64,000 nucleotides of DNA from a virus (taxonomy: Duplodnaviria; Caudoviricetes), in the IMG/VR virus record IMGVR_UViG_3300031760_000054, positions 979 to 64,978 of that record; one strand, written 5' to 3'. Both the position numbers and the translations under genes were made by a program. The notes beneath the pieces are model-generated. The model was not told the DNA's origin. It did not search any database and saw only the letters and a list, made by a program, of their open reading frames with translations. The number at the start of each line of letters is the position of its first letter. The stretch's first letter is position 1. This document shows, one piece after another, positions 4,038-33,699 of the stretch.

Positions 4038-5159
4038 ATGACAGAGGTAGTTATGCCCGCTTACAAGTACCAGAACACTGCAGGCAAGACGCTTTGGTAT
4101 GCCAGCTTCTACTATACCAACTGGAAGGGGGAAAAGAAACGGACAACAAAGAGAGGGTTCGCAACGAGAAGGGAAGCCCTCGAATTCGAGAGGGACTTCA
4201 TCAATGGGCAGGGCAAGAAGCCGACGATAGAGTTCAAGTACATGATACAGGACTATGAGGCCGACTGCGCTCTCAGGCTGAAGCCGACGACGATGCGGTT
4301 CAAGAAGGCGCTGATCAATTCGAAGTTCGTGCCGTATTTCGGAGAGATGAGGATCTGCGATATCGATCCGAACACGATCCGCGCATGGCAGAACGAGATG
4401 ATCCAGTACAGGGACGCCAACGGCAAGCCTTTCAAGGACACGTACCTTGCGAGCATGCACAGGGAGCTGTCGAACGTCATGACCTTCTGCATGAAGTATT
4501 ACGGCCTCACCATGAACCCCTGCCGGCTCGTCGGGCCGATGGGGAAGTATGAAGCCGAAGAGATGAAGATATGGACAAAGGACCAGTTCGAGATATACCT
4601 CGCCCATGAGGACAAGAGGCCGTATCACGTGGCGTTCAATGTCCTGTTCTATTCCGGTCTTAGGGAAGGGGAGCTCCTGGCTCTCACGCCGAGGGACCTC
4701 ATAGACAAGACCTACGCGCTTGACATCTACAAGAACTTCGCGAACGTCGAGGGGAAGGACATCATCCTCACACCGAAGACGGAATCCGGCAGGCGCATCG
4801 TAACGCTCCCGAAATCCGTTTATGAGGAGCTTAAGCAGTATGTAAAGGATATTGACTGCGCTCCTGACCAGAGGATATTCTATTTCAAGAGGGCAGGGCT
4901 GTGGAACGAGTTCCGGAACTGCACGGCGAGGGCCCAGCTCCCGCCGATCCGAATCCACGACATCCGCCACTCGCATGTGTCCATGCTCATCGACATGGGG
5001 TTCAACGTGAAACAGATTGCCGACAGGGTCGGTCACAAGAACGCGACGACCACGATGAAGACATATTCACACCTGTACGCAGGACGTGACATCGAGCTCG
5101 CGAAGCGCCTTGACGAGCAGATCAACAGCATCAACGAGGACGTGCCCGGAGAACCCTGA
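4038..5159 (+). CDS. int: Phage tyrosine integrase
   Basis: N-terminal arm-binding domain (KRGFATRREA); catalytic R (SGLREGE), K (TPKT), HDIRH, VGH, Y (TYSH). Confidence 0.95.
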   Translation: MTEVVMPAYKYQNTAGKTLWYASFYYTNWKGEKKRTTKRGFATRREALEFERDFINGQGKKPTIEFKYMIQDYEADCALRLKPTTMRFKKALINSKFVPYFGEMRICDIDPNTIRAWQNEMIQYRDANGKPFKDTYLASMHRELSNVMTFCMKYYGLTMNPCRLVGPMGKYEAEEMKIWTKDQFEIYLAHEDKRPYHVAFNVLFYSGLREGELLALTPRDLIDKTYALDIYKNFANVEGKDIILTPKTESGRRIVTLPKSVYEELKQYVKDIDCAPDQRIFYFKRAGLWNEFRNCTARAQLPPIRIHDIRHSHVSMLIDMGFNVKQIADRVGHKNATTTMKTYSHLYAGRDIELAKRLDEQINSINEDVPGEP

Positions 5160-11246: not shown

Positions 11247-11302
11247 TGCATAGAAAGTAAATGAACGGAAGTATTCAAAAGGAGAACGAAATGGAATTCA
11301 TA

Positions 11303-11324
11303 CCCGCCCCGGAGGTTACGAGGG
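11303..11324 (+). repeat. 22-bp leader motif, copy 4 (opposite strand)
   Basis: CCCGCCCCGGAGGTTACGAGGG followed by CAGAAAGGA RBS and ATG. Confidence 0.9.
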
Positions 11325-11338
11325 CAGAAAGGATAAAA

Positions 11339-18126: not shown

Positions 18127-20331
18127 TTACACACGTGCAAGGCACTTGGACGACACGAAACCATGCACATATTTATCATTGGCTTTGATGCGTACATAAT
18201 ACCAGATCACACCGTTTTTCGCCTTGACGGAATCGCAGACGTCGACCAGGTTTCCCTTCGCCAGCTGAGGATATGACTTGATGTTAGGATATTCCGTGCC
18301 TGCATAAACACGGACATTACAGCCGGTCGTTGCTTTTGCCACCCACTTCGGAGATTCATTCAGCTTTCCGGAGCTCTGCTTCGGCTCTTCCTTCGGCTCT
18401 TCCTTGAAACCGGTAAACGCACAATAGAAGGACTTTGCCAGCCACTGGTCAAAGTCCACATTCGTGAACGGCTGCGCACTGTTAATACGATCCTGAGATC
18501 CCATATCGTACTTGCTGCATGTTTTTGTGACGTGATTATAATCTGTCACGACAAATGCGTGCCATGCAGATGTGGGCTGCGCCGTACCGTCAGCCTTGAA
18601 AAGAATGATATCGCCACCCTTGATCTTGCTCTGATCAGTGACCTTCTTAAGCCCCCACTTAGTAAGGTATGTTTCCATATGCCCTACAGTGATACCGCCC
18701 TTAGGCTGGTCGGTGAATCCCAGGTCATACATGGCCTTGGCGATCAGACGATCACAGGAGATGATCTTGTCAGACGTCGGCGGCGTTGCCAGGCTGTTGC
18801 CATAAGAGTAATTTCCCTTGTGTGCCGTCTGGTAGACCGCATCAATCGCGCCGATGAACGTGGCGACAGTGATATCGCTCACCTTCGGAAGCTCCACGAT
18901 CTTCGTCAGATAAGCTCCGGACACAAAGCCATACCCCAGACTGGATTTGACGTAGTACCATTTCTTATCACCGACAGCTGTATAGGATCCATCGCAGGAA
19001 ACTTCTGCGCCGCCTGTCAATGTGCCGATTCTGGTCTTGTCAGTGCCGGCACCGTAGCGGATATTCAAGTCCTCTTTAACTGTATACTTCCCCTGCAGAG
19101 CATTGTCTTTTGAAGCGGGATTGTCAAGCGTCGGAGCTGTCTCTTTTTCAACTTCTGTGCTGTCCCACTTCGGACGACCAACGCCAATGATCCGGGAATC
19201 GGATTTTGCGATTTTCCGGACGGCGACACGGTCCTGGTAGTTACCCTCGGTCACATAATAATAGCTGCCCTCGATCGCAGTAATCGTGCCCACATGCTGC
19301 GCATCAGACGGGTCGTTGTGCCATGTATAATACACCTGGTCTCCGAGCTGTCCCTGCAACCGGGAATACCATCTGCCCTGATTCTTGAACCACTGCATTC
19401 CCACATCACAGTCGCATGTGTTCGGAGCTCCTACCGCCTTGCCTGTCGGATTAAGCCCTACGATGTGCGCCATTACTGACTGAGACGCCATGCACCAGCT
19501 GTCAGACATTGACATCTTATAGGTACCTGCCGGCCGCTGGTCGTTGTATGCCTTGATGATGTCATCGTCTCCATTTGGCTCGACATGGCCTTCCTTTACC
19601 CACTGACCGAGCAGATTGAGTCCTTTCTGAAGCTGGCTCATCGTTTCTCCCTCCTCTTTCTTTTCCACTCCGCCGTATTCCTCTTCGGCGTATTTACGAA
19701 TAAACTCAACACATTTCTGATGCCGGCTCCAATAGATCTTATCCCCGACCTGGTTACTGCTTGATGAATCAGCCTGATCCGCCATCAGGGCGCTCATAAT
19801 GCTGTCGAGGGAATAATTTCCATTGCAGCGGTTAAAGACACGTGTCACAGGGCCTACGCCGCCCAGATGCTGGATCTGCGCCCACATCATCTGGCCGTAT
19901 GTGGTCTTCACACCGAATTTCTCTGCCCTGGTGATGTACTTATTAAGGCGTTCCTGGAATACATACTCGCTCGCCTCATGCCCGGCTTCCGTACCGAGCA
20001 GTTTAATGAGGATTGCTTTTTCTGTGCTGTTCGGGTTCCACCGCATCTCGACCCATGAGGTCGAAAGCTTAGCCTTGATACTTCCGCTTGGGTCACAAGA
20101 TTCAAATACTGCAGGATACTTATCAAATATATACTGTATAAGCTCCTGCGCCTCGTCCCCGTACGCCTGATAAGGTCCAAGGGTGCACGTGTGCTCCCCG
20201 GGAGTGTTAGCGTAGGCTCCGGCGTATGCTGTCCAATCTCTATTCTCACTGTAGATCTGTCCGCCGCTCTCAACGGCAGCTATAATATTGGAAAGAACGT
20301 GTAAATTTTTCTTGTTCATACTTTTCCTCAC
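18127..20331 (-). CDS. Multidomain endolysin (N-terminal glycosidase-like, CHAP, SH3b, NlpC/P60-like, SH3b)
   Basis: SWC...HVG (CHAP); LNIRYGAGT and CNVRVYAGT (SH3b); SCDRL...WHAFVV; follows the holins. Confidence 0.85.
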   Translation of the reverse strand: MRKSMNKKNLHVLSNIIAAVESGGQIYSENRDWTAYAGAYANTPGEHTCTLGPYQAYGDEAQELIQYIFDKYPAVFESCDPSGSIKAKLSTSWVEMRWNPNSTEKAILIKLLGTEAGHEASEYVFQERLNKYITRAEKFGVKTTYGQMMWAQIQHLGGVGPVTRVFNRCNGNYSLDSIMSALMADQADSSSSNQVGDKIYWSRHQKCVEFIRKYAEEEYGGVEKKEEGETMSQLQKGLNLLGQWVKEGHVEPNGDDDIIKAYNDQRPAGTYKMSMSDSWCMASQSVMAHIVGLNPTGKAVGAPNTCDCDVGMQWFKNQGRWYSRLQGQLGDQVYYTWHNDPSDAQHVGTITAIEGSYYYVTEGNYQDRVAVRKIAKSDSRIIGVGRPKWDSTEVEKETAPTLDNPASKDNALQGKYTVKEDLNIRYGAGTDKTRIGTLTGGAEVSCDGSYTAVGDKKWYYVKSSLGYGFVSGAYLTKIVELPKVSDITVATFIGAIDAVYQTAHKGNYSYGNSLATPPTSDKIISCDRLIAKAMYDLGFTDQPKGGITVGHMETYLTKWGLKKVTDQSKIKGGDIILFKADGTAQPTSAWHAFVVTDYNHVTKTCSKYDMGSQDRINSAQPFTNVDFDQWLAKSFYCAFTGFKEEPKEEPKQSSGKLNESPKWVAKATTGCNVRVYAGTEYPNIKSYPQLAKGNLVDVCDSVKAKNGVIWYYVRIKANDKYVHGFVSSKCLARV

Positions 20332-20378
20332 TAAAAAAGCGGAGACCGAAGTCCCCGCCCTGCATTGTTTATTCAGTT

Positions 20379-20819
20379 TTATTCTTCATCTTCGGCAGCT
20401 AACAGCGCTGACAGCTGAGATGCGATTGCCGGATCCGCTGCTACCGGTTCAGAATCATCCGGAATCGATCCGACTGTATCCACGGAAATAAATCCGGAGT
20501 TCATGGTATTGACCGCAGCCTCGACCAGTGTGTTTATCTCGTCATATGTGAGGGCGATCCCGTTGTCGTTGAGCAGTTTTTCAATATATTTGATGGCGAT
20601 CCGCTTTTTATCCTCGCCATGGATGTCTTCCTCGACGGTCTGTTCTACCGCACGCACAACCGCGTCGACGATGTCAACGGCCCACGACCATCTTGTGTTC
20701 CGGAGCTTCGCTTCCACCTCGGCGCGTTTTTCTTCGAGGTACGGGAGAAGTGTCTTGGCTACGATGCCTGCGATCGCTACGATCAGTGCCATGCAGATGT
20801 TGAAAAATAAATTGTTCAT
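20379..20819 (-). CDS. Phage holin (LL-H-like)
   Basis: N-terminal TM helix, VRAVEQT...GEDKK...LVEAAV; upstream of the lysin. Confidence 0.8.
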   Translation of the reverse strand: MNNLFFNICMALIVAIAGIVAKTLLPYLEEKRAEVEAKLRNTRWSWAVDIVDAVVRAVEQTVEEDIHGEDKKRIAIKYIEKLLNDNGIALTYDEINTLVEAAVNTMNSGFISVDTVGSIPDDSEPVAADPAIASQLSALLAAEDEE

Positions 20820-20831
20820 GTAAAACCCTCC

Positions 20832-21272
20832 TTAAATTCTGTGTTCCTGCAGGAGCTTTTTGTGAAGGTCCCGGAGATAGGAAGAATTCTCCTCTATCAC
20901 TCCGTTCGCGATCTCATGCTTGCTGCAGAATGTCTCGTATCGTTTGATGATATCCAATATATGGTTCCATTCTTCTCTGCTATGCGACATATCCTGCGAG
21001 CATTCACGTGAGAACCGCAGGATTGCCTCGCGCTGGTAATCAATCCAGAACTCCCGGAACTCTTCCTTCTGGACGTTGCTCTGCTGGCTGACAGCATCAA
21101 GCTGCTTTTTTACGCCGGCATTGATCTTAGACCCGATCCATCCCAGGATAGTATCCCACGGATTGATTTTTATGGGTGCAATCTGAACGAGCGAGAGGAA
21201 CACTGCAAGGATAATGAACATTCCTGCGCCCGGTGAGATATGGAGCATAGTGAGCAAATCATTTAGGGACAA
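20832..21272 (-). CDS. Holin-associated membrane protein
   Basis: LVQIAPIKINPW...ILRFSREC...YETFC..H...NGVIE, typical lysis-cassette family. Confidence 0.75.
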   Translation of the reverse strand: MSLNDLLTMLHISPGAGMFIILAVFLSLVQIAPIKINPWDTILGWIGSKINAGVKKQLDAVSQQSNVQKEEFREFWIDYQREAILRFSRECSQDMSHSREEWNHILDIIKRYETFCSKHEIANGVIEENSSYLRDLHKKLLQEHRI

Positions 21273-21404
21273 TGGCCTTAATCTCCTTTCTAAATTAACA
21301 TGCAGTAATCTTGTCGTTTTCTAATGTTACGGTGCGTCTCTTGAATAAGACATGAACATCACCTCCGTAAAATAAAAAAGGAGCGATATACGCTCCATGT
21401 CAGT

Positions 21405-22415
21405 TTACTTCCCTATATAGCGCCTGTGATCAGCTTTAACCTTTTCCTTGTTCACATGCGCGTAATGCATTGTGGTCTTTATATCCATGTGCCCGAGCAT
21501 AGCCTGAACACTTTCGACTGGCATATCTTTCTCAATCGCTCTGGTCGCTACAGTGTGGCGGAATCGATGCGGGATAATATTCTGTACCCCGCTTTCAAAA
21601 GACAAGCTGTGAAGGCATCTGCGCACCGCAGGGGCACCTATTCGTTGAAACGGTTTCTTCTTCGATACGAACAGCGCCTCGCAGTCATCTGTCCTTGAAT
21701 CAAGATACTTCCGGATGCTTACCACAGCCCTTGCATCTATATAAGCAGTCCGCCACTTCCCGCCTTTCCCATAGACAACTAGCTCACGGTTTTCAAGATC
21801 TACATCTTCAATATTAAGGCCTACGCACTCAGATACTCGTATCCCGGATGATGCCAGTAGATCTACGATCGCTATATCCCGCTCAGACATGCATGCATCA
21901 CGTATCTTCTCGATATCCGTATCCTCATATTGTTCCCTGGGCTTTGAGTGCGCTTTCTCGCGTTTGATTCTTACGGACGGGTCCTTTGCGATGTATTCCT
22001 CTTCGTACAACCACCGGAAAAATGACTTAATGATACTCTTCCGCTGGTTCATCGTTTCCGCGCTGAGCTTCTTTCCGGTCTTCCTGTTCACGGATATATG
22101 CTGCAGATACATGCGGATATGGTTCACTGTGATCGCATCCAGAGGAATTCGGAGGAAATACAGCATGTCCTCAATACAGAGGCAATACTGCTCCCGCGAT
22201 CGCAAAGATAACTTGCCGTCCTGCTCCTTTGATGCGATGTACACATGATACGCTTGCGGAAGGCAGTATTCAGTTACGGCCAGTTCCGTAGTGATGGGCA
22301 CTATCGTAAACCCAAGCGTGTAGATATAGAGCACTTCTTTGATCTGTCTGATCTGCTCAGGTGTGAAATATGGTTCTAGCTTAAGGCTGAAACCATCAAC
22401 AAATGAATCTGACAT
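21405..22415 (-). CDS. XerD-like tyrosine recombinase (candidate invertase)
   Basis: Complete catalytic set SSGIRVSE, GKGGK, HRFR, LGH, TTMHY; ATG 22415 after GGGAGGG; adjacent to the left inverted repeat. Confidence 0.92.
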   Translation of the reverse strand: MSDSFVDGFSLKLEPYFTPEQIRQIKEVLYIYTLGFTIVPITTELAVTEYCLPQAYHVYIASKEQDGKLSLRSREQYCLCIEDMLYFLRIPLDAITVNHIRMYLQHISVNRKTGKKLSAETMNQRKSIIKSFFRWLYEEEYIAKDPSVRIKREKAHSKPREQYEDTDIEKIRDACMSERDIAIVDLLASSGIRVSECVGLNIEDVDLENRELVVYGKGGKWRTAYIDARAVVSIRKYLDSRTDDCEALFVSKKKPFQRIGAPAVRRCLHSLSFESGVQNIIPHRFRHTVATRAIEKDMPVESVQAMLGHMDIKTTMHYAHVNKEKVKADHRRYIGK

Positions 22416-22600
22416 AAACGTCCCTCCCTGTGTATTATTCGGGAGGGTAAACCTGAATATCCGGAGACAAAAAAAGCACCCCTGCATCAATGATAAAGCT
22501 CAACTGATACCACCTGCAACAATATATAGATTTCATCCAGAGAGTGCAGAAATCATGTCGGATTGTGCAGCACTGTCTCCCGGATCCGGACGCCATTTAG

Positions 22601-22712
22601 TTCCTTAAAGAGCAATTTAGGTAACATCGCGAACCTCGATACATCGGTAAAGACCAGTATCGTCGACGCGATCAACGCAGCCCAGGCTGATATAGACGAT
22701 GCAAAGGCTGAT
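22601..22712 (+). repeat. Left inverted repeat (IR-B) with core TTCCTTAAA-GAGCAA-TTTAGGTAA
   Basis: Matches the reverse complement of 28560..28671 at 103 of 112 positions. Confidence 0.95.
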
Positions 22713-23846
22713 TTAGGCGACTTGACGGAGCTTAAAACAGAGACAAAAACGGACTTGGTATCTGCAATCAACGAAGCATCCCAAAGCGGGTTATCTGATG
22801 CGGTTAAAAGAGCCTTATTAAATTGTTTTGCGAATATCCCGTGGTTTGGTGGCGAAGGATCGGAGTATTATAATGCGCTCGAAAGTGCTTTATACGAGAA
22901 CCTTCCGATTATCTATTTTGTCAGGGGACGCGGCACCTCTGGCGCGTCAGTCGTGCGCAATGAAAAGCGGGCAATGTCAGAGTTCATTCCATTCGTAAAT
23001 GAAATTCCGATAACGATTAGACTGGAATTAAAAGGAAATGCGTTTTCCTTCATAGGAAAATTCGCAAATACAGAGTATGGTTTTATGGTGGATACTAACA
23101 TAAAAACAAATGATGGAAATAATAGCGGATTTTACGATGAAGATAATCATTATGGAGTTTTTGCTTTTAGGAACAGCGACAAACAGTTTACTTTCGAAGA
23201 CTATACAAGTCACAATCCCAAATTTATGCAAAGCGCTTTATCCGGAGAGACCGTTGGCGATCATTTTTGTATTGTTCTCGCGGATGCTGATGACCAAAAC
23301 AATCCACTGCCGGAAACGCCTATTTCTGGATTTCTTGAAGTTCAGGGACGTACGTATAAAATACAAGAAGAGGATTATCAGGTAATAGAAGTCGTTAAAG
23401 GCAAAGGCACATCTGGGCAAAACATAGTTGATGTGGCCAATAGAGCATTGTCTGACCCAATCCCATTTAACAATACCGCACCAATTACGGTACAGATAAG
23501 TTTGGACGGGGACGCATATTTGTATAATTTCAAGTTCACAGACACCAATAACGCTATCATTCCGACCGAAAATGTACGCACTCCCAATAGCATAATCGGA
23601 TATTTTTATGATAATACGGCGAGCGTCGGTGGATGGGGGGAGAAGAGGCGCCCGCTCACGTTCAAAGAAAACGGGACATTGGAGCCGAGTATTTTGGGAA
23701 CGAGCTCAGACGGGCAAGTGCCTAACGGTCATTTCCGCCTAGTTTTTGCAAACGCTAATGACCCATCTGATTCCCTTCCGGAAGCTCCAATATCTGGAGT
23801 GGTAACTGTTCAGGGCATAAAGTATAAATTAACAACAAGTGATTAA
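22601..23846 (+). CDS. Silent alternative cassette B of the tail-associated protein (no strong start of its own)
   Basis: SLKSNLGNIANLDTSVKTSIVDAINAAQADIDDAKAD identical to cassette A; two tandem ~140-aa repeats follow. Confidence 0.8.
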
Positions 23847-23863
23847 TCTATCTGGAGGACATT

Positions 23864-25117
23864 ATGATTTTATATGATTACAAAGGCAATGTTTGGCCGG
23901 ATGTTGATGTGTTTAATTATATGGACTATGAATATAAAAACACTTGGTATAATGCATACACCGGGCTGAAAGTATTGTATCTGAATGGCGACACAGAAGG
24001 AATGAGCGGCGATGTCAAAAAAAATATGTCGTGGTCGTTTGATGGAAACTCTGGAACATGCACTGTCAAGTGGCAGGGCTCGTCTTCTCTTACATTTCCA
24101 AAGCACAACTACTCTATAAGCCTTGGAGCTAAAACAGATTGGGGAAATGCTTGGGGGCGTACTAAATGGGGAGCACAGAAAAAATACGTTTTAAAATCGT
24201 TTTACAATGATTTTTCGCATTCAGTATATATGTGTTCTGCGAGGTTATGGGGCGAAGTTGTACAGCATCGTGGAGAGACGAATGTTCCTGTGCAAATGTG
24301 GAACTCATTAAATTATGGTGCGGTTGATGGCTTCCCGGTTATGCTTATTATTAATGGTGAATATGTCGGCTTATATACCATTATGACCCATAAAGAAATA
24401 ACAACCAATGTTGATGATACAAATGGTTATTATATTATAGGACAGATAAACGATCACACAAGAAGCTTGGCAACATCATTTAGCGCACACACATCTGCCG
24501 CAAACTTGGCGGCTGAAGCAGATTTCGAATGCGTAAATTCCCCTGACGAAGATGATTTGTCTGATGTTGTTGCGTCGATTAATAGTTGCATTGATGCAGT
24601 TATATCTGCTGGGAGCAACTGGCAGAACACTCTTGCAAATTATATTGACGTAAACGCAGCCTTTGACTATTACATCTTCAGAGCTTTGCTTGGCGATGGT
24701 GACGGGGTAACAAAAAATCAGGGACTTGTCTGTTATGATGGAACTAAATGGATTCATACAGTATACGACTTAGACCATGCGTTTGCCGGAGCTGGCACCG
24801 GATCAGACCACAGGTCGCCTGAAAGCAACAACTGGGAGAGATATAAAACGGATAATAGAGTTTTTGACTTGATATATACCTACTCACTCCCAGAGTTTAA
24901 AGAACGGTATCACGATCTTAGGGATAGTGTTCTTAGAGAAGCGAATGTATATAATATATTTGCCAACTATATCAATGACATTCCCTTTGGCCTGTATGTT
25001 CAGGAAGATAAGCTGTGGCCACATATTCCAAACAGCAGTACAGCATCTTTACATCAGATAGCAGACTGGTATCGCCTGAGATGCCAGTGGAGCGATGCAT
25101 ATATAGATGCTTTGTAA
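23864..25117 (+). CDS. CotH-family kinase, cassette B
   Basis: VKWQGSSSLTFPKHNYSI, YVLKSFYND, LGDGDGVTKN, VYDLDHAF. Confidence 0.85.
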   Translation: MILYDYKGNVWPDVDVFNYMDYEYKNTWYNAYTGLKVLYLNGDTEGMSGDVKKNMSWSFDGNSGTCTVKWQGSSSLTFPKHNYSISLGAKTDWGNAWGRTKWGAQKKYVLKSFYNDFSHSVYMCSARLWGEVVQHRGETNVPVQMWNSLNYGAVDGFPVMLIINGEYVGLYTIMTHKEITTNVDDTNGYYIIGQINDHTRSLATSFSAHTSAANLAAEADFECVNSPDEDDLSDVVASINSCIDAVISAGSNWQNTLANYIDVNAAFDYYIFRALLGDGDGVTKNQGLVCYDGTKWIHTVYDLDHAFAGAGTGSDHRSPESNNWERYKTDNRVFDLIYTYSLPEFKERYHDLRDSVLREANVYNIFANYINDIPFGLYVQEDKLWPHIPNSSTASLHQIADWYRLRCQWSDAYIDAL

Positions 25118-25211
25118 ACTAAACGCCCGGATGCAAGTATACGCAATGACATTGTATGGCAGATCAAAAAGAGTGAGTGCGCTCATGATTACTGTGTGGG
25201 CGTTTAGTTTG

Positions 25212-26288
25212 CTAAATAAGCTCTATATATTCAGTGACTTTTGAGATTAAGACATTGTATTTAAATGCCTTTTTCAGAATTTCAATGATAACAGAAATGC
25301 AGAGAGATATAGACAGCAACACAAGGATTATTAAGGCAAAATACTTCCACGAATATGTGAAATTTCTAAAATAGTACAGCCTTATAAAAGTATGCGTCAT
25401 GTATATATTTGCCGAATGCGCCCCCAAAAACGCTAATATGCTTTTCAGGTAAGGAATAACGAATTCAACGCAGAACAATACTATTAAGACCGGGAGCAGC
25501 CCATAATGATAATCCCATAATTTTTCAATCGGGATATAGAAATATACCTTATACAAGGCCATCAGCACCCATAGCTCTGCAATACATTTATATGCTTTCG
25601 TTAGGCGGGTCTTGCTTCCGATTAGTGCCCATTTGTCGAATAGATTGTTTTCAGCAAATAGACATCCGAACAGAAACGCAGTCAAAAAGGCATATACTGA
25701 GTTATGGCCTGTGAATGGTTCCATTGGAAGAATCCGTATAAATACAATTTCCGATATCAAAAACAGCCATATGTACTCTTTACACTTATATACAATCGGA
25801 ATGAGTATGATGAACACGAACGCCGCGCTCATATACCACCAATTTCCATTCATTGACGGAGTTCTAAAAATAGTAGATAGCCCACAGAAATCAATTAAAG
25901 CGTAAATGATACCAGCTACTCCCTTGCCGTATGTGTTTATATATCTTCCATCTGCAATTTGAAAAACGATTGCACAAAGTACCCACACAAACCAATAGCC
26001 TGAAAATGACCTTATGTATCTTAAAGCAATCCACTTTTTATCGTCTGTTGTTTTGCCTGAATAGCTCTTGAATAGTCCATATCCCGAGATAAATGCAAAT
26101 ATCGACACGCAGACCTTACAGACGAAGGCAATATTTACAATGGTATTTTCATGAAAAGGAAAGAAGCTCACATTAAATCCGTCATAAACTGCTTTCTCTC
26201 GGAAACAATGAAAGAGAAGCATCATAATAATTGCTATCCCTTTCATTGCTAACGATTCTTTTTTTGCAAATGTCGGCCCTGCTATCAT
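25212..26288 (-). CDS. Acyltransferase family 3 (membrane O-acyltransferase), moron
   Basis: MKGIAIIMMLLFH, FAFISGYGL, WWYM, multiple TM helices, AT-rich. Confidence 0.9.
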   Translation of the reverse strand: MIAGPTFAKKESLAMKGIAIIMMLLFHCFREKAVYDGFNVSFFPFHENTIVNIAFVCKVCVSIFAFISGYGLFKSYSGKTTDDKKWIALRYIRSFSGYWFVWVLCAIVFQIADGRYINTYGKGVAGIIYALIDFCGLSTIFRTPSMNGNWWYMSAAFVFIILIPIVYKCKEYIWLFLISEIVFIRILPMEPFTGHNSVYAFLTAFLFGCLFAENNLFDKWALIGSKTRLTKAYKCIAELWVLMALYKVYFYIPIEKLWDYHYGLLPVLIVLFCVEFVIPYLKSILAFLGAHSANIYMTHTFIRLYYFRNFTYSWKYFALIILVLLSISLCISVIIEILKKAFKYNVLISKVTEYIELI

Positions 26289-26319
26289 TTTCGTTTCCCC
26301 TGCTATAGTTTTTTTTATT

Positions 26320-26347
26320 ATTATACATCAGGAGAAAGCGATATCAA
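26320..26347 (-). promoter_or_regulatory. Own promoter of the acyltransferase gene
   Basis: Minus-strand TTGATA-16 bp-TATAAT upstream of a GGGG RBS. Confidence 0.6.
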
Positions 26348-26355
26348 TTTAGATT

Positions 26356-27606
26356 TTATGTGCTGTATCCATATTTAGTGTCACAATACGCCAGTCTTTC
26401 AGTAATCCACGTTCCGCACTGTGTAATATCCCATTCGGGATGTAGCTTTTCATTCCATTTCTGGTTTTCGTGCGCAAAGTTGTCCGCACCCCACTGGTCA
26501 CGATAAGCCGTGAAGTAGCCTATGATTGTCTGCGCATCAGTGAATACTGTCTGTCTCAGCTTTGCGTAAATCTCACACAGCGCCGTGTAATCTGTTGCAT
26601 AGAGCTTGTCCCATATCGGATTGTACTTATGTGCCCATTCCTGTGTTTTTGACAGCGCGATTAAATCAACGTTAGACGGATACAGCGGAGGATTCCAACC
26701 AAAAATAATGTCCGCATCGTACCAAAGCACGTACCACTTGTTTCCGTCCCAGCTGGCCCATGTGCTATTATTAACCATACTGTCACCGGCTCCGGCTATA
26801 TCCATCATTAGCCAGTAGTACCTGAGTGAATCAAGGTCAAAATAATCCTCAACATCGGCTGAGAACTCTGCATTTGTGCAGGTCTTTGTCCAGTTTACCA
26901 TTCTTGTGAGTTTTTCAATCTGGTAGGCTATCGGATCGTCATGTATTCTGTCTTCAAAATACTGCACTTCCCATCCATCATTAGACGGTCTAAAGCACAT
27001 GTGATTTTCGTTAGACTCATCCATAGCGAACAGGTCAGCATTCTGTGACAGATTCCAAGTGTAGCACCCCCACCACTCATTATTGATATAGAGTATGATC
27101 GGGAAAGAATCAACCACACCTCTAGCGTTATTCGGATACAGATTCGGGTATATCTTCCGTCCAAGCTGGACACCTACGACGTTTCGCACAAGTGAATAAT
27201 CGCCATAGTTGGCTTTAATGTGATAGCCATTAGTCGGAAACCAGTCCTTGAAAGACATAATTACCTTGTTTCCGTTTCCGTCAATGAACTTGATATTGTA
27301 GTTCTTTTTCGGATAGTTCAGTGAACTCTGTCCCTGCCACTTCGTTTTAGCCTTACATTTAAAAGAGCGCACTCCGTCAGTAAATTCTGCATCGAGCGTT
27401 ACAGCCTTATCCTTTGTCATTTTGGATGTGTCGCCCGTGAGCCGCAAAACAGGCAGAGTGAACTCAGTATCGTGCATTCCTTCGAGTGCTGTGATTCTGG
27501 CAGAATCAAGTGATAGAAGATTCTTAATATCTATCATGAGAGCATCCTTCTGTGCATCTCCACCCACCGTTACGGGATTGCCACTTCTATCATAATATAC
27601 AGGCAT
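26356..27606 (-). CDS. CotH-family kinase, cassette A
   Basis: KWQGQSSLNYPKKNYNIK, YHIKANYGD, GAGDSMVNN, WYDADIIFG. Confidence 0.85.
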   Translation of the reverse strand: MPVYYDRSGNPVTVGGDAQKDALMIDIKNLLSLDSARITALEGMHDTEFTLPVLRLTGDTSKMTKDKAVTLDAEFTDGVRSFKCKAKTKWQGQSSLNYPKKNYNIKFIDGNGNKVIMSFKDWFPTNGYHIKANYGDYSLVRNVVGVQLGRKIYPNLYPNNARGVVDSFPIILYINNEWWGCYTWNLSQNADLFAMDESNENHMCFRPSNDGWEVQYFEDRIHDDPIAYQIEKLTRMVNWTKTCTNAEFSADVEDYFDLDSLRYYWLMMDIAGAGDSMVNNSTWASWDGNKWYVLWYDADIIFGWNPPLYPSNVDLIALSKTQEWAHKYNPIWDKLYATDYTALCEIYAKLRQTVFTDAQTIIGYFTAYRDQWGADNFAHENQKWNEKLHPEWDITQCGTWITERLAYCDTKYGYST

Positions 27607-28727
27607 TATTCATCACCCCCGATTACAAAATCTGTGTCTGTTGTTATCCACGCCGTAGAGTGCTGTACATGCCCATCTGCTATGCGTTCAGCCCTTACAC
27701 CAGCTTTTACTCCACTAAATGAAATTACATCGCCTTTTTTCATCAGAAAAGCAAACTTGTTTTGTATGCGAGTTGCTGTATCCGGGTTCTTCTGATCTTC
27801 TTCAGGCGTTCCGCCGCCAAGGATATTAAACACGTTCCTAAACCACTGTGATTTACTAACCAGCACGTTACTGTTAGTCTCGTTGTTGTCAGGGATGTCC
27901 CCATAATACAAAGGCATCTGCATATCATTACGACCGTATACTACATCATTCAATATTTCTACGCCTTCCCTCTTAAAAGTCACGCCATTCAGTAGCGTTG
28001 TGTTATACGGTATTGCGCTGTCATCTCGATTTGCCAGAACGATACTCACAGCATACAGGTCATACGGGATGCTTCTGTAGATGTTTCCAACGGGGTTTCC
28101 GTTCCAAGATACTCTAAAATATTTTGCCCCTTCCGGCGGATTTAGCACAAAGTATCTAGGCTCGATATAGCCAAATGTGTCGTTGAATGCGCTTATTTCT
28201 CTCGATATAAATTCTTTATCTTCATTGTAGTAACACACCCTATGCGCCATGCAACCACTCTTATAGACGTCGTTTATTTTGAAGACAGAGCCGTCAAACC
28301 CCCTAATCCAAATGTAATCAGTATCCGGCTGAATCGGGAAATACTTATCATTATAGTATGCGAAATCCGTAGGCTGTACTTCCCCGTCCGCATCGTAATA
28401 TCCGCCATAGTGTATTTCTCCAGTCCTCAGATCTGGATATTCAATGCCATATAACGCATCTCTTAACGCATCACAATACTCATCACCCTTTCCATCATCA
28501 TAAAGTGCGATGTGTGAAACGAGTGTTAACAGAGCGGCTTTTATATCGTCTGTCACTACATCAGCCTTTGCATCGTCTATATCAGCCTGGGCTGCGTTGA
28601 TCGCGTCAACGATACTGGTTTTCACGGATGTGTCAAGGTTTGCTATGTTACCTAAATTGCTCTTTAGGGAATTTATTTTGGTCGCGTATGCGCCAAATAT
28701 TGTTGATAAATCATCAAATAAAGCCAT
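27606..28727 (-). CDS. Tail-associated protein, cassette A (currently fused to the start), candidate receptor-binding/adhesion protein
   Basis: ATG 28727 after AAAGGAG; ~20-aa constant N-terminus, then the shared repeat and a variable C-terminus. Confidence 0.8.
   Translation of the reverse strand: MALFDDLSTIFGAYATKINSLKSNLGNIANLDTSVKTSIVDAINAAQADIDDAKADVVTDDIKAALLTLVSHIALYDDGKGDEYCDALRDALYGIEYPDLRTGEIHYGGYYDADGEVQPTDFAYYNDKYFPIQPDTDYIWIRGFDGSVFKINDVYKSGCMAHRVCYYNEDKEFISREISAFNDTFGYIEPRYFVLNPPEGAKYFRVSWNGNPVGNIYRSIPYDLYAVSIVLANRDDSAIPYNTTLLNGVTFKREGVEILNDVVYGRNDMQMPLYYGDIPDNNETNSNVLVSKSQWFRNVFNILGGGTPEEDQKNPDTATRIQNKFAFLMKKGDVISFSGVKAGVRAERIADGHVQHSTAWITTDTDFVIGGDE
28560..28671 (-). repeat. 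Right inverted repeat (IR-A) with core TTCCCTAAA-GAGCAA-TTTAGGTAA
   Basis: 9-bp imperfect dyad arms around a 6-bp asymmetric spacer. Confidence 0.95.
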
Positions 28728-28738
28728 GGCTACTCCTT

Positions 28739-29011
28739 TCATTCAAGCAGATCTGTCAGAGCATCGATCTGCGCCGTTGAAAGCGCGATATGCTCCGCAA
28801 CTGCCTTGTTCTGTACCGCGTTGGTTGATGACGTCGACAGTTCGCTGTCTACCACAACAGATCCACTCGTCAAAGTTTCAGTCTTTACCTTTCCATCCGG
28901 ACCGACCGCGAGAACCTTCCCCGCGTCACCAGCTCCGCCGGCTGCGCTCATCTGCTCTACTGTCTTCGGCATAAGGGCGCGGATCAGCGCAATGACAAAT
29001 CCCATCTTCAT
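28739..29011 (-). CDS. Small tail-region protein
   Basis: C-terminus near-identical to that of 29251..29634. Confidence 0.75.
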   Translation of the reverse strand: MKMGFVIALIRALMPKTVEQMSAAGGAGDAGKVLAVGPDGKVKTETLTSGSVVVDSELSTSSTNAVQNKAVAEHIALSTAQIDALTDLLE

Positions 29012-29023
29012 ACCGCACCTCCT

Positions 29024-29239
29024 TTACAGCGCGCGCCACTGACTGTTGTCTTCGTCATACATGTAGGCTTCACCTGAATCCATGGCGATGAACACTGAGC
29101 CGTTGGCGATCGCTGAACCGTTGAACTGTCCGGTGGGTTTCTCATCGGTGCTGAGCCCCACGAAAGACATGATTTCCTTGCTCAGCGCCGATCCGTTAAT
29201 TGTTCCAGTTGATTTGCTTGTATCTACAAGTGAAATCAT
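29024..29239 (-). CDS. Small tail-region protein
   Basis: GLSTDEKPT...NGSVFIAMDSG..YMYDE..W motif common beside phage fibre genes. Confidence 0.75.
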   Translation of the reverse strand: MISLVDTSKSTGTINGSALSKEIMSFVGLSTDEKPTGQFNGSAIANGSVFIAMDSGEAYMYDEDNSQWRAL

Positions 29240-29250
29240 AGTATTCCTCC

Positions 29251-29634
29251 TTAATCAAGAAGCCCTGTAATGGCCGCGATCTGCGCCGTTGAAAGTGTGA
29301 TATACTCCGCAACTGCCTTGTTCTGGATTGCATTTGTTGACGTTGGATCAAGCGCCGCGTCCGCGTCAAATGTAATGCTCGGGTCGAGCTTTGCCTTCGG
29401 AATCGTGCCGTTCGCCAGCTTTGCTCCGGTGATAGTACCATCACCGATCGTGAGCGCCGCCATCTCGCCCTGATCGATTTTATGCTGAAGTGCTGCTTCA
29501 AGCGCATCTGTGCGCAGTCTCGGGTCGTTTACGTTGTCATAGCACTCGGTAATCGCCCCGATTATTGCGCCCCTTACATCTTCGCCAAATAAAGCAGACC
29601 GCAATCTTTCTAAATAAACAGAAATCGCTGACAT
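29251..29634 (-). CDS. Tail fibre/baseplate-associated protein
   Basis: LFGEDVRGAI N-terminus; IGDGTITGAKLANGTI repeats. Confidence 0.75.
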   Translation of the reverse strand: MSAISVYLERLRSALFGEDVRGAIIGAITECYDNVNDPRLRTDALEAALQHKIDQGEMAALTIGDGTITGAKLANGTIPKAKLDPSITFDADAALDPTSTNAIQNKAVAEYITLSTAQIAAITGLLD

Positions 29635-29651
29635 TTCATACCTCCTTCCTG

Positions 29652-29969
29652 TTAAGCCTGCTCGTTCATGTCGATGCTTTCATGGTTCTCAAAGGCATTT
29701 ATCAGCTCTTTCTTTTCGTTTTCGGCAGCCTCTTCCATTTCTTTCATCTTTTCCTTATAGTAGTCGTGCGTCTGTCTGATCGTAGATTCAGAGTCATTCG
29801 CAAGCTCGCTATACGCTTTCTGAGATTCTGCAACAAGGGCAGCTCTGAGGATGTCTACCAACATAAAGTGCGGTAGGCCAGACCTGTCCATAACATCATC
29901 GATTACTGCAAGCAGTTCCTTTTCAACAGACGCTTTTTTCATGCAGTACGTTATCATTGGTGTATTCAT
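29652..29969 (-). CDS. Hypothetical tail-region protein
   Basis: 105 aa, in the operon. Confidence 0.7.
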   Translation of the reverse strand: MNTPMITYCMKKASVEKELLAVIDDVMDRSGLPHFMLVDILRAALVAESQKAYSELANDSESTIRQTHDYYKEKMKEMEEAAENEKKELINAFENHESIDMNEQA

Positions 29970-30004
29970 TTCTGTCTCCTCTCAAAGTTTTACGACAAGG
30001 TATT

Positions 30005-32986
30005 TCACGTAGCATGCACAGTTCCGTGAACATCTCCGTGCCAACCATTTCTGTCGAAATAACCGCATGTATATTTTGTGTTTCCGGATATCTGAACGAT
30101 ATAAAGCGTACCGGAACCTCCGATTTCAAGGTACATGTCATGCTGGCTTCCAAGTGCGACCTCGTAACCGGAGTTGTAATACGCACTGAGGTCAAGATAG
30201 CCACATTGAGCACCTTCGTGCTTTCCAATCAGCATGGAGCTGTCGAGGACCATATCTTCTTCTCCATCAGTGGACGTGATTTTTCCTTTGATGTCAGCAG
30301 ATGTACATGTGAGCTTTCCGTCTGAGGTCATCGACGAATACGTGCTTGTCCACGCGATGTTGTTCGCCTTCAATCTGATAGCATCGGCACTCTGTTCAAT
30401 AAGGGACTGTGCTTGACTGGACGTTACACGGAGTCTTATTGCATCTGCGTTCTGCTTGATCTGCGATTCGTAGTACGCACTGCCGTACCCAAGAATCTCA
30501 ACGTCGGTGATGTAGATAGTCGTGTTGCTAACAGTGTTACGTATGTACACATAACGGGTTCCTGCAGGAACGTTGCTGAAATCGACATCGAACGTTTTCC
30601 ACGTGGAACCTATAAATCCGTCATCAGTGAATATTGATTTGGAGCCGATGAGCACTTCTGCGTTCGCTGTTCCAACATCTGCCGTTCTGCAAGCAACCTT
30701 AAAGCGAACTTTGACATCCGACACCTTGGGAACTTCAAAAGAGTATCCTGCGTACTGGTTTCCGGAAGACTGGTTCGCAATCGAAAGGCATGACTTTCCG
30801 CTATACGTCGTTCTGACGACGTAGCTTTCGTTCGATCTTACCCATCCTTCGTAGTAATTCGACGAGTCCGAGAAATTGGAGTTCGAGCAGTAATTGTGCT
30901 GCATATTTTCATACAGCGATGTTACTGTTGAACGGATAGAATCTGCCTGTACTGTCAGTTCCGCCGATACGTCTTCGATCAATTCGGTGAGGTCTCTGAG
31001 GACCCGGATATTCGTGACGTAAAGAATCGTACCGGCTGCACCGTTGACAGCAACTGAAATCGTCTTTGACGCTGCCGTGATCTCTAACGCTCTTTGGACA
31101 GTATGCATTTCATTTCCGGTGTACGTAGACAAGCTGACAGTCCGGAGGTTCCCGGAGAAACCATATGCAAGCGATGTAGGTCTGAGCGTTGTCAGACCAT
31201 CGCTGTCAAGCGGAAATGCGAAGGTGACTTCAATCAGGTACGTTCCTGCCGGCAGATTTCCGAGGTCCTGGCTGATATAGACTGTCGACGAGCTGTTGAA
31301 CTGGACCTTGAAGCATGACAGATTCAAGAATTGCGCTTCTGTGACGGATGCACCGTTACCTGTGACAGTGAACGAGCTAATGTCGAGCGTTTCCTGTTCG
31401 CCATTCGTGACGTACTCTTTCATGGACATACGCCTTGCTTCCGAGGATGCGTACAGCCTAATCCGGTTCTCTGCGTTCGTGATACTGTTCTCAAGCTCAG
31501 TAACAACTTGCTCGTCTCCGTCTGAAATCGCCTTTTCGACTGACGTTCTGTATCCAAGGTCGATACTTGCTGCAGCTATGGAATTTGCGAGGATCATGTT
31601 TCCGTTAATCTTGCCATCCATCGTGAGGGCAATTCCGTCAACCGGTCCGTCGTATCCCTGGCTGTAATGAGCAAGACCACCCAAACCCCACCGCCAAAGG
31701 TTTACGGCCTCTTCTGGATCGGTATTGTCTGCAACAATAAACTCGTTAGGCGTATGGATTGCATAACCACCGGTGCAGTATGCATTGAGCATGGCAGTTG
31801 CATCTCTGATCGCCTGTTCGAGAATTTCTTTCTTTGTCGGCAGGAGCTGTATGGTCTTTTCCAAATCTCCGGTTGTCTGTGCATTCGATGACGTATAGCT
31901 TGCAACGACACTCTCGTTTCCGATTGTGACGGTGTTCTGTTCGTACTTCGTGAGGTATATTCTCATCTTTGTCAACGGAAGCCACACGTCCATTCCGTGA
32001 GGCTCGGAGATGCAGTGTATCCTCTTTCCGACTTTGAACCGGTCGAGGTCTTCATTGATAAGTCCAAGATCAACTGCTTTTAGTTCGAGCACAAGCTTTT
32101 CGTACTGAACGGTACTAAGATAATTTTCGCCCCAGGCTTTCAGATAGGTAGCGGTGGTCACATCGTCGTTTATTACAGTCTTGAAAATCTTGCCGTACAT
32201 TGCGATTGCATTATTGTCTGTCACGTAGTCGACACCACCGTTGACGCTTTCTATCGTTAATCTCTGCTCCTGCAGAGTGGGGTCCTGCTGTTCTTCAGGC
32301 AGTCTGTATCCAAGCGGAATAATGCACGTTGCAATGTCTGCAGCGGTTATTGTCTTGGAATAATCGAGCATATTCTTGCCGAACATTATCGGTTGTTCAC
32401 AGTCGCTGTAATAATCGTAATCAGCGAGATAATCGAGGTATCGAAGGCCGTCCTGCCCCCACCTGATCACGAAATGACCACCTAGCCGGTCGACAAGCTT
32501 TTCCTTTAGGCATTTTCTAGTGGTCTCCCAGTTCGAGTATCTGTAAATGGAATTGTTGCTGTCAGTGACGGTAACACGCCCAAGATAGAACTTCTTTCCT
32601 TCTTCAACCTGTGCGTTGTGGTTCTCAAGAAGCGTTCCGAGGTACGTGGAAATCGAGACGTTGCGATACACAGCAGGTCTCTGGATGCTGTCGTTAAGGT
32701 ATCCGAGCTGACCTTCTACGAAAACGTGCTTGGTTCCGTTCATGTCCTCATCGTCGTACAGCACACGCCCTCTGAACACTTCGTCGTCTTCATCCATGAC
32801 GACGATCTCTGTGGTAAGCTTTTTGACATGTGCGTAGTACGGATGTGTCTTGTACACCAAAAACTCAGCTTGTCCGTTAAGGTTGTCGGCAAGCTCAAAA
32901 TACGGGCTGCCTACCTGCACGGTTCGCATGCGTGGGTTATGGATGAGATACCTGTTGTCCCCGACAAGAGCATAAATCGTATACAT
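30005..32986 (-). CDS. Phage tail protein (Tal/endopeptidase-like hub) with probable carbohydrate-binding inserts
   Basis: Follows Dit; VFRGRVL, IATCIIPLG, LWRWGLGGL motifs. Confidence 0.85.
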   Translation of the reverse strand: MYTIYALVGDNRYLIHNPRMRTVQVGSPYFELADNLNGQAEFLVYKTHPYYAHVKKLTTEIVVMDEDDEVFRGRVLYDDEDMNGTKHVFVEGQLGYLNDSIQRPAVYRNVSISTYLGTLLENHNAQVEEGKKFYLGRVTVTDSNNSIYRYSNWETTRKCLKEKLVDRLGGHFVIRWGQDGLRYLDYLADYDYYSDCEQPIMFGKNMLDYSKTITAADIATCIIPLGYRLPEEQQDPTLQEQRLTIESVNGGVDYVTDNNAIAMYGKIFKTVINDDVTTATYLKAWGENYLSTVQYEKLVLELKAVDLGLINEDLDRFKVGKRIHCISEPHGMDVWLPLTKMRIYLTKYEQNTVTIGNESVVASYTSSNAQTTGDLEKTIQLLPTKKEILEQAIRDATAMLNAYCTGGYAIHTPNEFIVADNTDPEEAVNLWRWGLGGLAHYSQGYDGPVDGIALTMDGKINGNMILANSIAAASIDLGYRTSVEKAISDGDEQVVTELENSITNAENRIRLYASSEARRMSMKEYVTNGEQETLDISSFTVTGNGASVTEAQFLNLSCFKVQFNSSSTVYISQDLGNLPAGTYLIEVTFAFPLDSDGLTTLRPTSLAYGFSGNLRTVSLSTYTGNEMHTVQRALEITAASKTISVAVNGAAGTILYVTNIRVLRDLTELIEDVSAELTVQADSIRSTVTSLYENMQHNYCSNSNFSDSSNYYEGWVRSNESYVVRTTYSGKSCLSIANQSSGNQYAGYSFEVPKVSDVKVRFKVACRTADVGTANAEVLIGSKSIFTDDGFIGSTWKTFDVDFSNVPAGTRYVYIRNTVSNTTIYITDVEILGYGSAYYESQIKQNADAIRLRVTSSQAQSLIEQSADAIRLKANNIAWTSTYSSMTSDGKLTCTSADIKGKITSTDGEEDMVLDSSMLIGKHEGAQCGYLDLSAYYNSGYEVALGSQHDMYLEIGGSGTLYIVQISGNTKYTCGYFDRNGWHGDVHGTVHAT

Positions 32987-33699
32987 TACAGCGAACCTCC
33001 TTTAGCAAGCACATCTACAGTGCCGGTCCCACGGAAATACACCGTGTTTGTGCCGTCGGACAACTCGATCTCTTCGAGCATGGTACTGCCGGCAGGAAGG
33101 CTGTACACAACATTGTTGAACTTTACATCCATAGCGGAGCTGCATGTGAACGAAACTCCATAGCTGACAGGGTATCCGATGATTTCCTTTCCGACCCACT
33201 GGCTAGGGCTGTTAATCGTGAACTCATACTTCTTGTGAATAACTCCGTTTACGAACGAGAACGGGTCCCAAAGCCAATCTCCGTTTTCGGAGGCAACTGC
33301 GGTCTTGTACGGATAACATTCGCATGTAATGGCGAACTCAGATGTTATGTCGTTAATCTTTGACGTATCTACAGTACATCTTCCTTCGTAGTAATACTCG
33401 TTGTCACAGTCAAGGACGATCCGAACCTTTTTTCCGTGTATCTTGTTCGATATCTCGCTTATGAGATCCGCCCATTTCCTATATCCGCAATTTCTTGCGT
33501 CAAAAACAAAACGAAGTGTCCGTTTTCCGTACCGGACACTTCCTGTTACAGCTTCAGTAAGATCGAGAACACCATCCATTCCCATGACATCGATTTCAAC
33601 TAGCTTTGCCCCAGGGCTGCCAATTTCAATCTCTTTCAGCTTCAGCTTCCAGTCATCATACGAGTGATAGTCTCCGAACTTTACTCCGATCACGCCCAC
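32986..33699 (-). CDS. Distal tail protein (Dit)
   Basis: After the TMP; VMGMDGVLDLTEAVTG, YYYEGRC. Confidence 0.85.
   Translation of the reverse strand: MGVIGVKFGDYHSYDDWKLKLKEIEIGSPGAKLVEIDVMGMDGVLDLTEAVTGSVRYGKRTLRFVFDARNCGYRKWADLISEISNKIHGKKVRIVLDCDNEYYYEGRCTVDTSKINDITSEFAITCECYPYKTAVASENGDWLWDPFSFVNGVIHKKYEFTINSPSQWVGKEIIGYPVSYGVSFTCSSAMDVKFNNVVYSLPAGSTMLEEIELSDGTNTVYFRGTGTVDVLAKGGSL

Follow-up and report, generated by a model that had tools for sequence, protein, structure and literature searches.

The Rin shufflon of Bifidobacterium breve and Bifidobacterium longum prophages was described by Mavrich et al. in 2018 as the first phage-encoded tyrosine invertase (PMC6109161). It comprises a constant segment, Rc, variable Rv cassettes, 11-bp rix sites, and an adjacent, armless rin gene, with a separate integrase (PMC6109161), and Rin-like loci are also reported in Eggerthella lenta prophages (PMC8778435). 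Here we examine a locus of comparable design in a virus of the Caudoviricetes, IMG/VR record IMGVR_UViG_3300031760_000054. The 64,000 nucleotides (nt) analyzed, hereafter the window, span positions 979 to 64,978 of that record and include, at window positions 21,405 to 28,739, two cassettes of fiber and enzyme genes that converge between inverted repeats, beside a gene for an Xer-like tyrosine recombinase. We consider it likely that this locus is a receptor-binding-protein shufflon of the Rin type in its simplest, two-cassette form, operating as an inversion switch, even though flipping is not directly shown.

The likeness to Rin extends to several features. An armless, XerD-like tyrosine recombinase is encoded beside the locus, apart from the canonical integrase; a constant N-terminal segment carries the start; promoterless cassettes are stored in both orientations; and a short site lies in frame at the head of each cassette, with one more after the 3′ end. 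Whereas an Rv cassette is a single short fragment, however, the cassettes here are operon tails of 2.5–3.6 kb made up of a fiber end and one or two enzyme genes. The sites differ too, being full 9-6-9 dyads within a coding repeat of 116 nt; in sister phages they come in several spacer classes, each as one inverted pair; and the host is a rumen Clostridia bacterium. Finally, Rin variants were seen in virion DNA, whereas flipping here is inferred from sequence, and the resemblance is one of architecture.

In the Mu G and P1 C segments and in the Min system of p15B, inversion is carried out by serine invertases (Gin, Cin, and Min) with a Fis-dependent enhancer, and the accessory gene encodes a small fiber-assembly protein. 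Inversion in Mu and P1 joins a constant Sc to either Sv-U or Sv′-U′ (also summarized in PMC6109161). Our locus shares with Mu G and P1 C two convergent two-gene cassettes, each consisting of a variable fiber part with its own downstream accessory gene, but it differs from the Gin, Cin, and Min systems in using a tyrosine recombinase and in its accessory gene, which encodes a 416-amino acid (aa) protein of the CotH kinase fold, or other enzymes in sister phages. The pneumococcal cod/ivr (SpnD39III) hsdS locus is served by one tyrosine recombinase, PsrA, with inverted-repeat pairs of 15, 298, and 85 bp, the long repeats being coding sequence that contains a short core-like sequence (PMC7096588, PMC4948785). 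PsrA is encoded next to its locus, as our recombinase is, and the several distinct repeat pairs that it serves are paralleled by our 116-nt coding repeat with its embedded cores and by the c, a, and b site pairs of the sister phages; cod shuffles target-recognition domains in the specificity subunit of a bacterial restriction-modification system, whereas phage adsorption genes are involved here, and the two are compared by architecture only. In the tail-fiber shufflon of BV01-like Phocaeicola phages, all configurations were seen in reads (PMC13596623, a 2026 preprint). It too is a recombinase-flanked, multi-cassette locus at the distal end of a tail-fiber gene, but it measures 1.7 kb, uses 10-bp directional motifs, and has three short cassettes that alter the C-terminus only, with no accessory genes.

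These precedents bear on the original prediction for this DNA, which was made from the sequence alone and held that a kinase-containing architecture was undescribed. That claim does not stand: tyrosine-recombinase receptor-binding-protein shufflons are published (PMC6109161, PMC8778435, PMC13596623), the swap of a fiber end with an accessory gene is the Mu G and P1 C design, and the kinase is not fixed, as GDPD, SGNH esterase, GH16, lectin-like, or beta-helix proteins are encoded in sister phages with 95–98% identical flanks. What is new relative to known shufflons is a variant, with operon-sized, enzyme-carrying cassettes, two sites embedded in one coding repeat, and, in the sisters, nested pairs told apart by their spacers. 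With such a switch, a temperate rumen phage could keep two complete adsorption modules (four in the sisters) and expose one at a time, a hedge against host-surface variation, and it would probably change which bacteria the phage attaches to. If this is true, the swapped unit goes beyond published shufflons in being an operon tail with enzymes, not just a fiber tip.

Two convergent cassettes lie between inverted, proposed crossover sites

The elements of the locus are listed below by window position.

22601..22624, plus strand: crossover site c, recombinase side, TTCCTTAAA-GAGCAA-TTTAGGTAA
28648-28671, minus strand: crossover site c, tail side, TTCCCTAAA-GAGCAA-TTTAGGTAA
22601..22716, plus strand: left repeat arm, encoding SLKSNLGNIANLDTSVKTSIVDAINAAQADIDDAKAD
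28556..28671, minus strand: right repeat arm, containing the tail-side c site
22699..22720, plus strand: inner site of class e, GCAAA-GGCTGA-TTTAGG
28672..28739, minus strand: constant fiber start, with ribosome-binding site AAAGGAG (28739-28733), ATG at 28727, and 19 codons (MALFDDLSTIFGAYATKIN)
27606..28647, minus strand: variable part of fiber A, expressed (from the open reading frame [ORF] listing)
26356..27606, minus strand: CotH-A (PF08757, E 1.1e-17, 65.0 bits)
25212..26347, minus strand: Acyl_transf_3 membrane O-acyltransferase, last gene of cassette A (Pfam E 1.8e-20)
22625..23846, plus strand: silent fiber cassette B, with no start of its own (from the ORF listing)
23864..25117, plus strand: CotH-B (PF08757, E 5e-23, 82.5 bits)

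A repeat search identified the inverted repeat as 116-nt arms (22601-22716 and 28556-28671) that are 91% complementary, with a blastn self-match at E 3.7e-42. The arms differ at ten positions. Nine of these lie within the 112 nt recognized in the original prediction and are all synonymous, as it had stated; the tenth, at position 113, changes V to L in the first codon that separates the two proteins, where the cassettes diverge. The longest run of perfect identity between the arms is 42 nt. At the outer end of each arm is the predicted 9-bp dyad around a 6-bp asymmetric spacer, GAGCAA, in which TTCCCTAAA and the complement of TTTAGGTAA match at 8 of 9 positions. This 24-nt core has just two copies in the window when up to five mismatches are allowed, at 22601-22624 (plus) and 28648-28671 (minus). 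Its first 8 nt (TTCCCTAA; 22601-22608 and 28664-28671) are also the first 8 nt of the rix site published for Rin, TTCCCTAACCC (PMC6109161), an identity that could reflect chance or a common recognition half-site. In this phage the class e inner site stands unpaired, its copy in the arm of cassette A being degenerate. This second site type, the Acyl_transf_3 gene, and the 95-nt hairpin element described below are absent from the text of the original prediction.

The start signals are distributed asymmetrically, as had been foreseen. Only copy A has a ribosome-binding site, an ATG, and constant codons, and this constant start is kept in every tail-side copy of the relatives we identified. Copy B has an in-frame TTG at 22563 as its sole open start, with neither a ribosome-binding site in front of it nor an in-frame ATG. 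The prediction that each copy is followed by its own CotH-family protein is likewise borne out by the PF08757 matches listed above.

Two genes for tyrosine recombinases are of concern here.

21405..22415, minus strand: Xer-like tyrosine recombinase, the proposed invertase; ORF open to TTG 22490, with the probable start at ATG 22415 behind GGGAGGG
4038..5159, plus strand: separate canonical integrase, with Arm-DNA-bind_4, SAM_3, and Phage_integrase domains

The ORF at 21405-22490 matches Pfam Phage_integrase (E 5.6e-34) and a SAM-like core-binding domain and has no arm-binding domain; its best NCBIfam matches are XerA/XerC/XerD-type models, all under their cut-offs. Residues R218, K245, H308, R311, H334, and Y343 align with the catalytic residues of the XerC-like structure 4a8e and of Xer proteins, so that all catalytic residues are in place and the enzyme is intact, as predicted. 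Its relatives are 336 aa long and begin at residue 26 of the ORF, in agreement with ATG 22415, which puts the gene 185 bp from the repeat (the original estimate was about 190 bp). Because an integrase with an arm-binding domain exists at 4038-5159, we set aside the possibility that the Xer-like enzyme is the phage integrase. Tests against integron-type integrase models gave 81.6 bits for TIGR02249 (cut-off 265) and 41 for NF011946 (cut-off 435), and no match to the serine recombinase family PF00239 was found anywhere in the 65-kb record. A third, short ORF of the Phage_integrase family (192 aa; 11261-11839) is probably a fragment.

From this anatomy we propose the following mechanism. The late minus-strand tail operon ends in a fiber gene of which only the ribosome-binding site, the ATG, and the first 19 codons (28727-28672) are fixed. 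The Xer-like recombinase would bind the two inverted 24-bp c sites, exchange strands in the GAGCAA spacer, and flip about 6.0 kb. In the assembled state, the fixed start leads into fiber A, CotH-A, and the acyltransferase; after a flip, it would continue in frame into fiber B and CotH-B, with cassette A now stored beside the recombinase gene. The next 37 codons, in the repeat, would form a conserved stalk segment that moves with each cassette, which would explain why the repeat copies differ at synonymous positions only. Sister phages widen the same system to four cassettes through more site pairs that have the same arms and different spacers.

Sister phages carry unrelated cassettes that break at the proposed sites

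The original prediction had proposed a search for the same repeat with different cassettes in other genomes, and such genomes exist. An exact search with 20 nt of the core recovered one IMG/VR contig (L022) and nine metagenome stretches, among which two pairs of contiguous stretches give complete loci: ODAI012428306 (L031 and L024; hereafter ODAI) and OCTX012222792 (L030 and L029; hereafter OCTX). Relative to the window, these sister phages are 94–98% identical in the flanks and 97–98% identical in the recombinase, and between the sites their DNA bears no relation to it. Genes in their cassettes code for a GDPD phosphodiesterase, SGNH/GDSL esterases, GH16, proteins whose domains are lectin-like or Ig-like, a beta-helix protein, and more Acyl_transf_3 proteins; no CotH is encoded in the cassettes of the close sisters. 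Across the relatives, Acyl_transf_3 genes recur in cassettes of L022, L028, and L042. With other enzymes in the CotH position, the kinase, judging by gene content, is one of many interchangeable accessory genes and not a constant component of the system.

When 12 repeat copies are aligned, two zones stand apart. Outside the core, the sequence is strictly side-specific, and this extends to the left arm of the dyad, which has C on the tail side and T in every recombinase-side copy of the relatives. From the spacer inward, a haplotype seen on the tail side of one phage can be on the recombinase side of another, with differences that are almost all synonymous, and all recombinase-side copies retain the protein sequence. 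Between ODAI and OCTX, comparing repeat copies across sides gives 9 and 7 mismatches, versus 12 and 17 when copies from the same side are compared.

ODAI and OCTX each hold four cassettes and three nested site pairs with different spacers. The second site at the inner end of their repeats has the same TTTAG arm and a spacer of class a (GGCGGG) or class b (GACCGA). The a and b copies lie on either side of J, a head-to-head junction of 45 nt, and delimit the internal cassettes, which have no start codon at all. The order of sites is c+ a+ a- J b+ b- c- in ODAI, c+ b+ b- J(inverted) a+ a- c- in OCTX, and a+ ... a- c- in L025; the mirrored skeletons of ODAI and OCTX are those expected from a flip of the whole segment at c. 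One cassette (98.9% identical in nucleotides, 98–100% in its proteins) is internal in ODAI and fused to the terminal repeat in OCTX. In its internal position, the fiber ORF starts exactly at the a site and is without 53 N-terminal residues, and the homology ends precisely at this a site. Comparison of these near-identical phages thus places the breakpoints of rearrangement exactly on the proposed sites.

Every spacer class in each phage is represented by one copy per orientation. If recombination needs identical spacers, as it usually does, this one-pair-per-spacer rule would permit inversions only. If this is true, the sisters would answer a question raised for Rin, namely how deletions are avoided. 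The claim that inversion swaps a two-gene unit therefore gains from the architecture and from sister rearrangements with breakpoints at the sites, and inversion of the phage in the window itself was not observed.

One further shared element lies where the two cassettes of the window meet.

25118..25212, no strand assigned: junction element E, 95 nt, between the 3′ ends of the cassettes, bounded by perfect inverted AACTAAACGCCC

Element E folds with a 16-bp stem (-35.3 kcal/mol, z -3.6). It is 94–98% identical in L022, L025, and L023 and 77% identical in L028, where the neighboring genes are unrelated, and relative to the flanks it is inverted in L022 and L025 as compared with the window. Its ends correspond to the left arm and spacer of a "d" site found upstream of the recombinase in relatives. 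We considered whether E is an intrinsic terminator and rejected this, because no U-run follows the stem on either strand.

The silent cassette is conserved in another phage, and the recombinase belongs to a wider family

The more distant phage L034 has cassette B alone, oriented for expression, with a fiber 88% and a CotH 97% identical in amino acids. The ratio of nonsynonymous to synonymous substitution rates between the silent and the expressed copy is 0.09 for CotH and 0.21 for the fiber; the silent cassette is under purifying selection. The original prediction that copy B is translated in some phase is supported by these ratios, by the expression of cassette B in L034, and by the protein sequence kept in recombinase-side repeat copies. 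Cassette A likewise occurs as the sole cassette of L036 (fiber body 90.5% identical in nucleotides, CotH 93% identical), and in L042 it is found with the acyltransferase and fused to a longer fiber N-terminus that has a faint BppU_N match. A relative of the recombinase directly follows the cassette in L034 and L036. L042 stands at the start of a 60,974-bp contig with a recombinase relative at the other end (L013), so that the two are adjacent only if the contig is circular.

Sixteen IMG/VR contigs carry recombinases 53–70% identical to ours, with the gene either between the tail and lysis genes or beyond the lysin, and no long inverted repeats were found near these IMG/VR relatives. The dyad CTAAA-N5-7-TTTAG occurs 12 times in 273 kb of recombinase-relative loci, against about 0.8 expected, and 8 of the 12 sit 65–240 bp upstream of the aligned recombinase start. 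This excess beside the recombinase gene indicates that the enzyme and the site family belong together. In the loci inspected for this (L004, L015, and L016), a dyad (GTAAACTAAACGCCCATTTAG) comes immediately behind the stop codon that closes the cassette's final gene. A scan of genome contigs with the recombinase returned one 60% identical match, in a metagenome-assembled genome (MAG) of an uncultured Clostridia bacterium, all other matches being distant; 401 genomes sampled from the order of this bacterium gave no copy of the 20-nt core.

Single ACTAAA-N5-7-TTTAG dyads are located at L004 609, L005 9800, L008 92, L010 2834, L011 9814, L012 9802, L014 112, L015 9317, and L016 9902. The L004 dyad lies 755 bp upstream of the aligned recombinase start and the others 65–240 bp upstream. 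A single dyad in this place looks like the layout of a gene next to its site, in the style of Cre/loxP or XerS/dif. L005 has dyads at 7833 and 9800, in the same orientation, which flank a cassette of a fiber end and a 325-aa gene and have different spacers (TGGATC and CGGGCA); on the opposite strand, a 35-codon open frame starting NSLNARL follows the recombinase-near site and is possibly the remnant of a lost cassette. Some copies of the recombinase may be inactive: the relatives at L017 10001-10992 and L018 10001-10994 align in two frames, suggesting a frameshift near residue 288, and the copy in the Clostridia MAG (G001:C25:1478-2506) has an in-frame TAA.

Evidence for and against inversion

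Several observations weigh against the inversion switch. No flipped form was found: Logan contigs of the source run and of three other runs stop inside the repeat, with no strand-changing joint listed, and the contig ends in the source run (22694 and 22683; 28589 and 28578) are uninformative on inversion either way. An independent 37.9-kb assembly from another sample has the same order, with cassette A behind the constant start (A-ON), which makes two A-ON assemblies, and no recorded protein joins the constant start to fiber B. Because many of the recombinase relatives at 53–70% identity follow just one cassette and have at most one dyad site, the enzyme family may have another primary job, and this is our main reason for caution. 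Part of the conservation of the dyad could be due to coding, as it also encodes a conserved motif, L-K/N-x-x-L-G, and haplotypes could be exchanged between repeat copies by gene conversion without crossover. The Xer-like recombinase would be the enzyme that flips the segment, flips would take place within a population, and adsorption specificity would change with them.

Were the locus static, the repeat would represent the conserved N-terminal coding segment of two paralogous fiber genes acquired separately; the recombinase would serve another function, for example resolution in the manner of Cre/loxP or Xer/dif at the one dyad that lies upstream of its gene, or integration, and cassette B would be a relic or self-started. 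Single-cassette relatives that retain the recombinase, and assemblies that are A-ON only, agree with such a locus. The original prediction had named a start and promoter belonging to copy B as features that would speak against a switch; a weak promoter-like match at 22409-22438 does face cassette B, but promoter-like matches in the region are not above shuffled sequence (16 found versus 20 expected), and neither a ribosome-binding site nor an in-frame ATG is present. We consider a static locus unlikely given, in addition, the sister cassettes that are cut exactly at a site and have no possible start, the mirrored site skeletons, the purifying selection on the silent cassette, and the canonical integrase elsewhere in the record. 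General homologous recombination by the host across the 116-nt repeat, with the neighboring recombinase not the catalyst, would also produce inversion, and the 42 nt of perfect identity between the arms would favor it, as does the cod locus, where some longer-repeat inversions persist without PsrA (PMC7096588). Yet the repeat ends, on its outer side, at a 9-6-9 dyad such as is typical for the core sites of tyrosine recombinases, there is a statistical association between the site family and the recombinase gene, and the breakpoints in the sisters fall at sites of about 17 nt that, on one side, have no flanking homology (the J element) and are unusable for homologous recombination, all of which makes this route highly improbable.

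We give least credence to cassette exchange as the main activity of the recombinase, with inversion as a by-product. Cassettes with an in-frame site at the 5′ end and, at the 3′ end, a d site or the E hairpin would be excised and captured between co-infecting phages, in a somewhat integron-like manner. Cassettes are indeed replaced wholly between near-identical flanks, a pattern that ordinary homologous recombination in the conserved flanks explains equally well. Boundaries of the required kind are found where cassette homology stops at ACTAAACGCCC, which is the case for L034 and for contigs from runs X2 and X4, and in the dyads that follow the last cassette gene in L004, L015, and L016; the two same-orientation sites around one cassette in L005 would suit excision, but their spacers differ. 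The recombinase also falls far short of the TIGR02249 integron-integrase cut-off, and no circular cassette or empty site was seen. Returning to the inversion switch, a broader version of it is possible but doubtful: one Xer-like recombinase would read the c, a, b, e, and d sites, which have shared arms (xxAAA and TTTAG) and different 6-nt spacers, giving nested, independent inversions without risk of deletion, and the 3′ d sites and E hairpin would also let phages capture or exchange whole adsorption modules (a fiber end with a predicted-active CotH kinase, esterase, phosphodiesterase, or acyltransferase), as a shufflon-integron hybrid for host-range modules.

Cassette contents

An AlphaFold2 model of fiber B (predicted local distance difference test score [pLDDT] 74) has helices at residues 1-111 and beta domains at 116-269 and 273-425, the latter resembling adhesin-type tandem beta-sandwiches among known structures, with low template-modeling (TM) scores. 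In the model, fiber B is thus a helical stalk that leads into two adhesin-like beta-sandwich domains.

CotH-A and CotH-B are 24% identical, and both exceed the PF08757 gathering cut-off of 23.8 bits. The model of CotH-B (pLDDT 85.8) has 5jda and 5jd9 as its top structural matches (probability 1.00, TM 0.66/0.75; 5jda E 2.8e-13); a phmmer search of CotH-B against the PDB returned nothing, and a profile was needed to reach CotH structures. D280/N285 and D302 of CotH-B are invariant in 25 sequences, CotH-A included, and through the 25-sequence profile their columns align with DGFVHN and WDYD of Bacillus cereus CotH (5jd9). The corresponding catalytic and metal-binding aspartates are D228 and D251 of Bacillus subtilis CotH, from which we take the residue roles (PMC7821199). 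Both proteins of the window keep the catalytic D-x4-N and the metal-binding aspartate and are predicted to be catalytically intact.

In phages, CotH is mentioned only as a domain fused to lectins diversified by diversity-generating retroelements, and it is called unstudied (PMC8008677). Many of the CotH homologs of 560–720 aa that we recovered have the CotH domain behind fiber-like N-termini, either an Ala-rich coiled coil or collagen repeats as in P0051, which suggests that CotH is a recurrent distal fiber module in gut and rumen Clostridia phages. Several of these long homologs (among P0013-P0088) are on contigs of 37–70 kb. The CotH proteins of the window are probably cassette-specific fiber partners, located on the virion or acting on the fiber during assembly. 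By placing putatively active CotH kinases in a defined position as such partners, the locus would offer an experimental handle on the role of CotH in phages.

The best promoter-like site of the region, TTGATA-16-TATAAT (11 of 12 matches; 26347-26320), precedes the acyltransferase gene. Runs X2 and X4 contain a contig with the acyltransferase and CotH-A block (window 25192-27579) at 97–98% identity, which diverges from the window at 27579, just inside the start of CotH-A, and, within the E arm, near 25195; other fibers are therefore also found attached to this block.

Genomic surroundings

The locus belongs to a late minus-strand operon of siphovirus type, with the tape measure gene at 33702-37199, a 237-aa ORF at 32986-33699, and a tail protein with a Prophage_tail domain at 30005-32986. 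Small ORFs separate this tail protein from the proposed switch locus, and downstream of that locus come a 146-aa ORF, a holin, and a lysin. The window covers almost all of the record, which is 64,978 bp long. The DNA of the window is nearly complete in one bovine-gut run and present in part in other ruminant-gut runs. A blastn search of the locus against a phage genome collection gave no match, and an Rfam search of 20000-30000 gave chance-level matches only.

Two small proteins (90 aa and 127 aa) encoded upstream of the fiber have a common C-terminal 36 aa, which is coded by an 86-nt direct repeat (28743-28828 and 29255-29340, 81% identical). A weak ALTTAQ-repeat match was obtained, and the two proteins may be alternative fiber adaptors.

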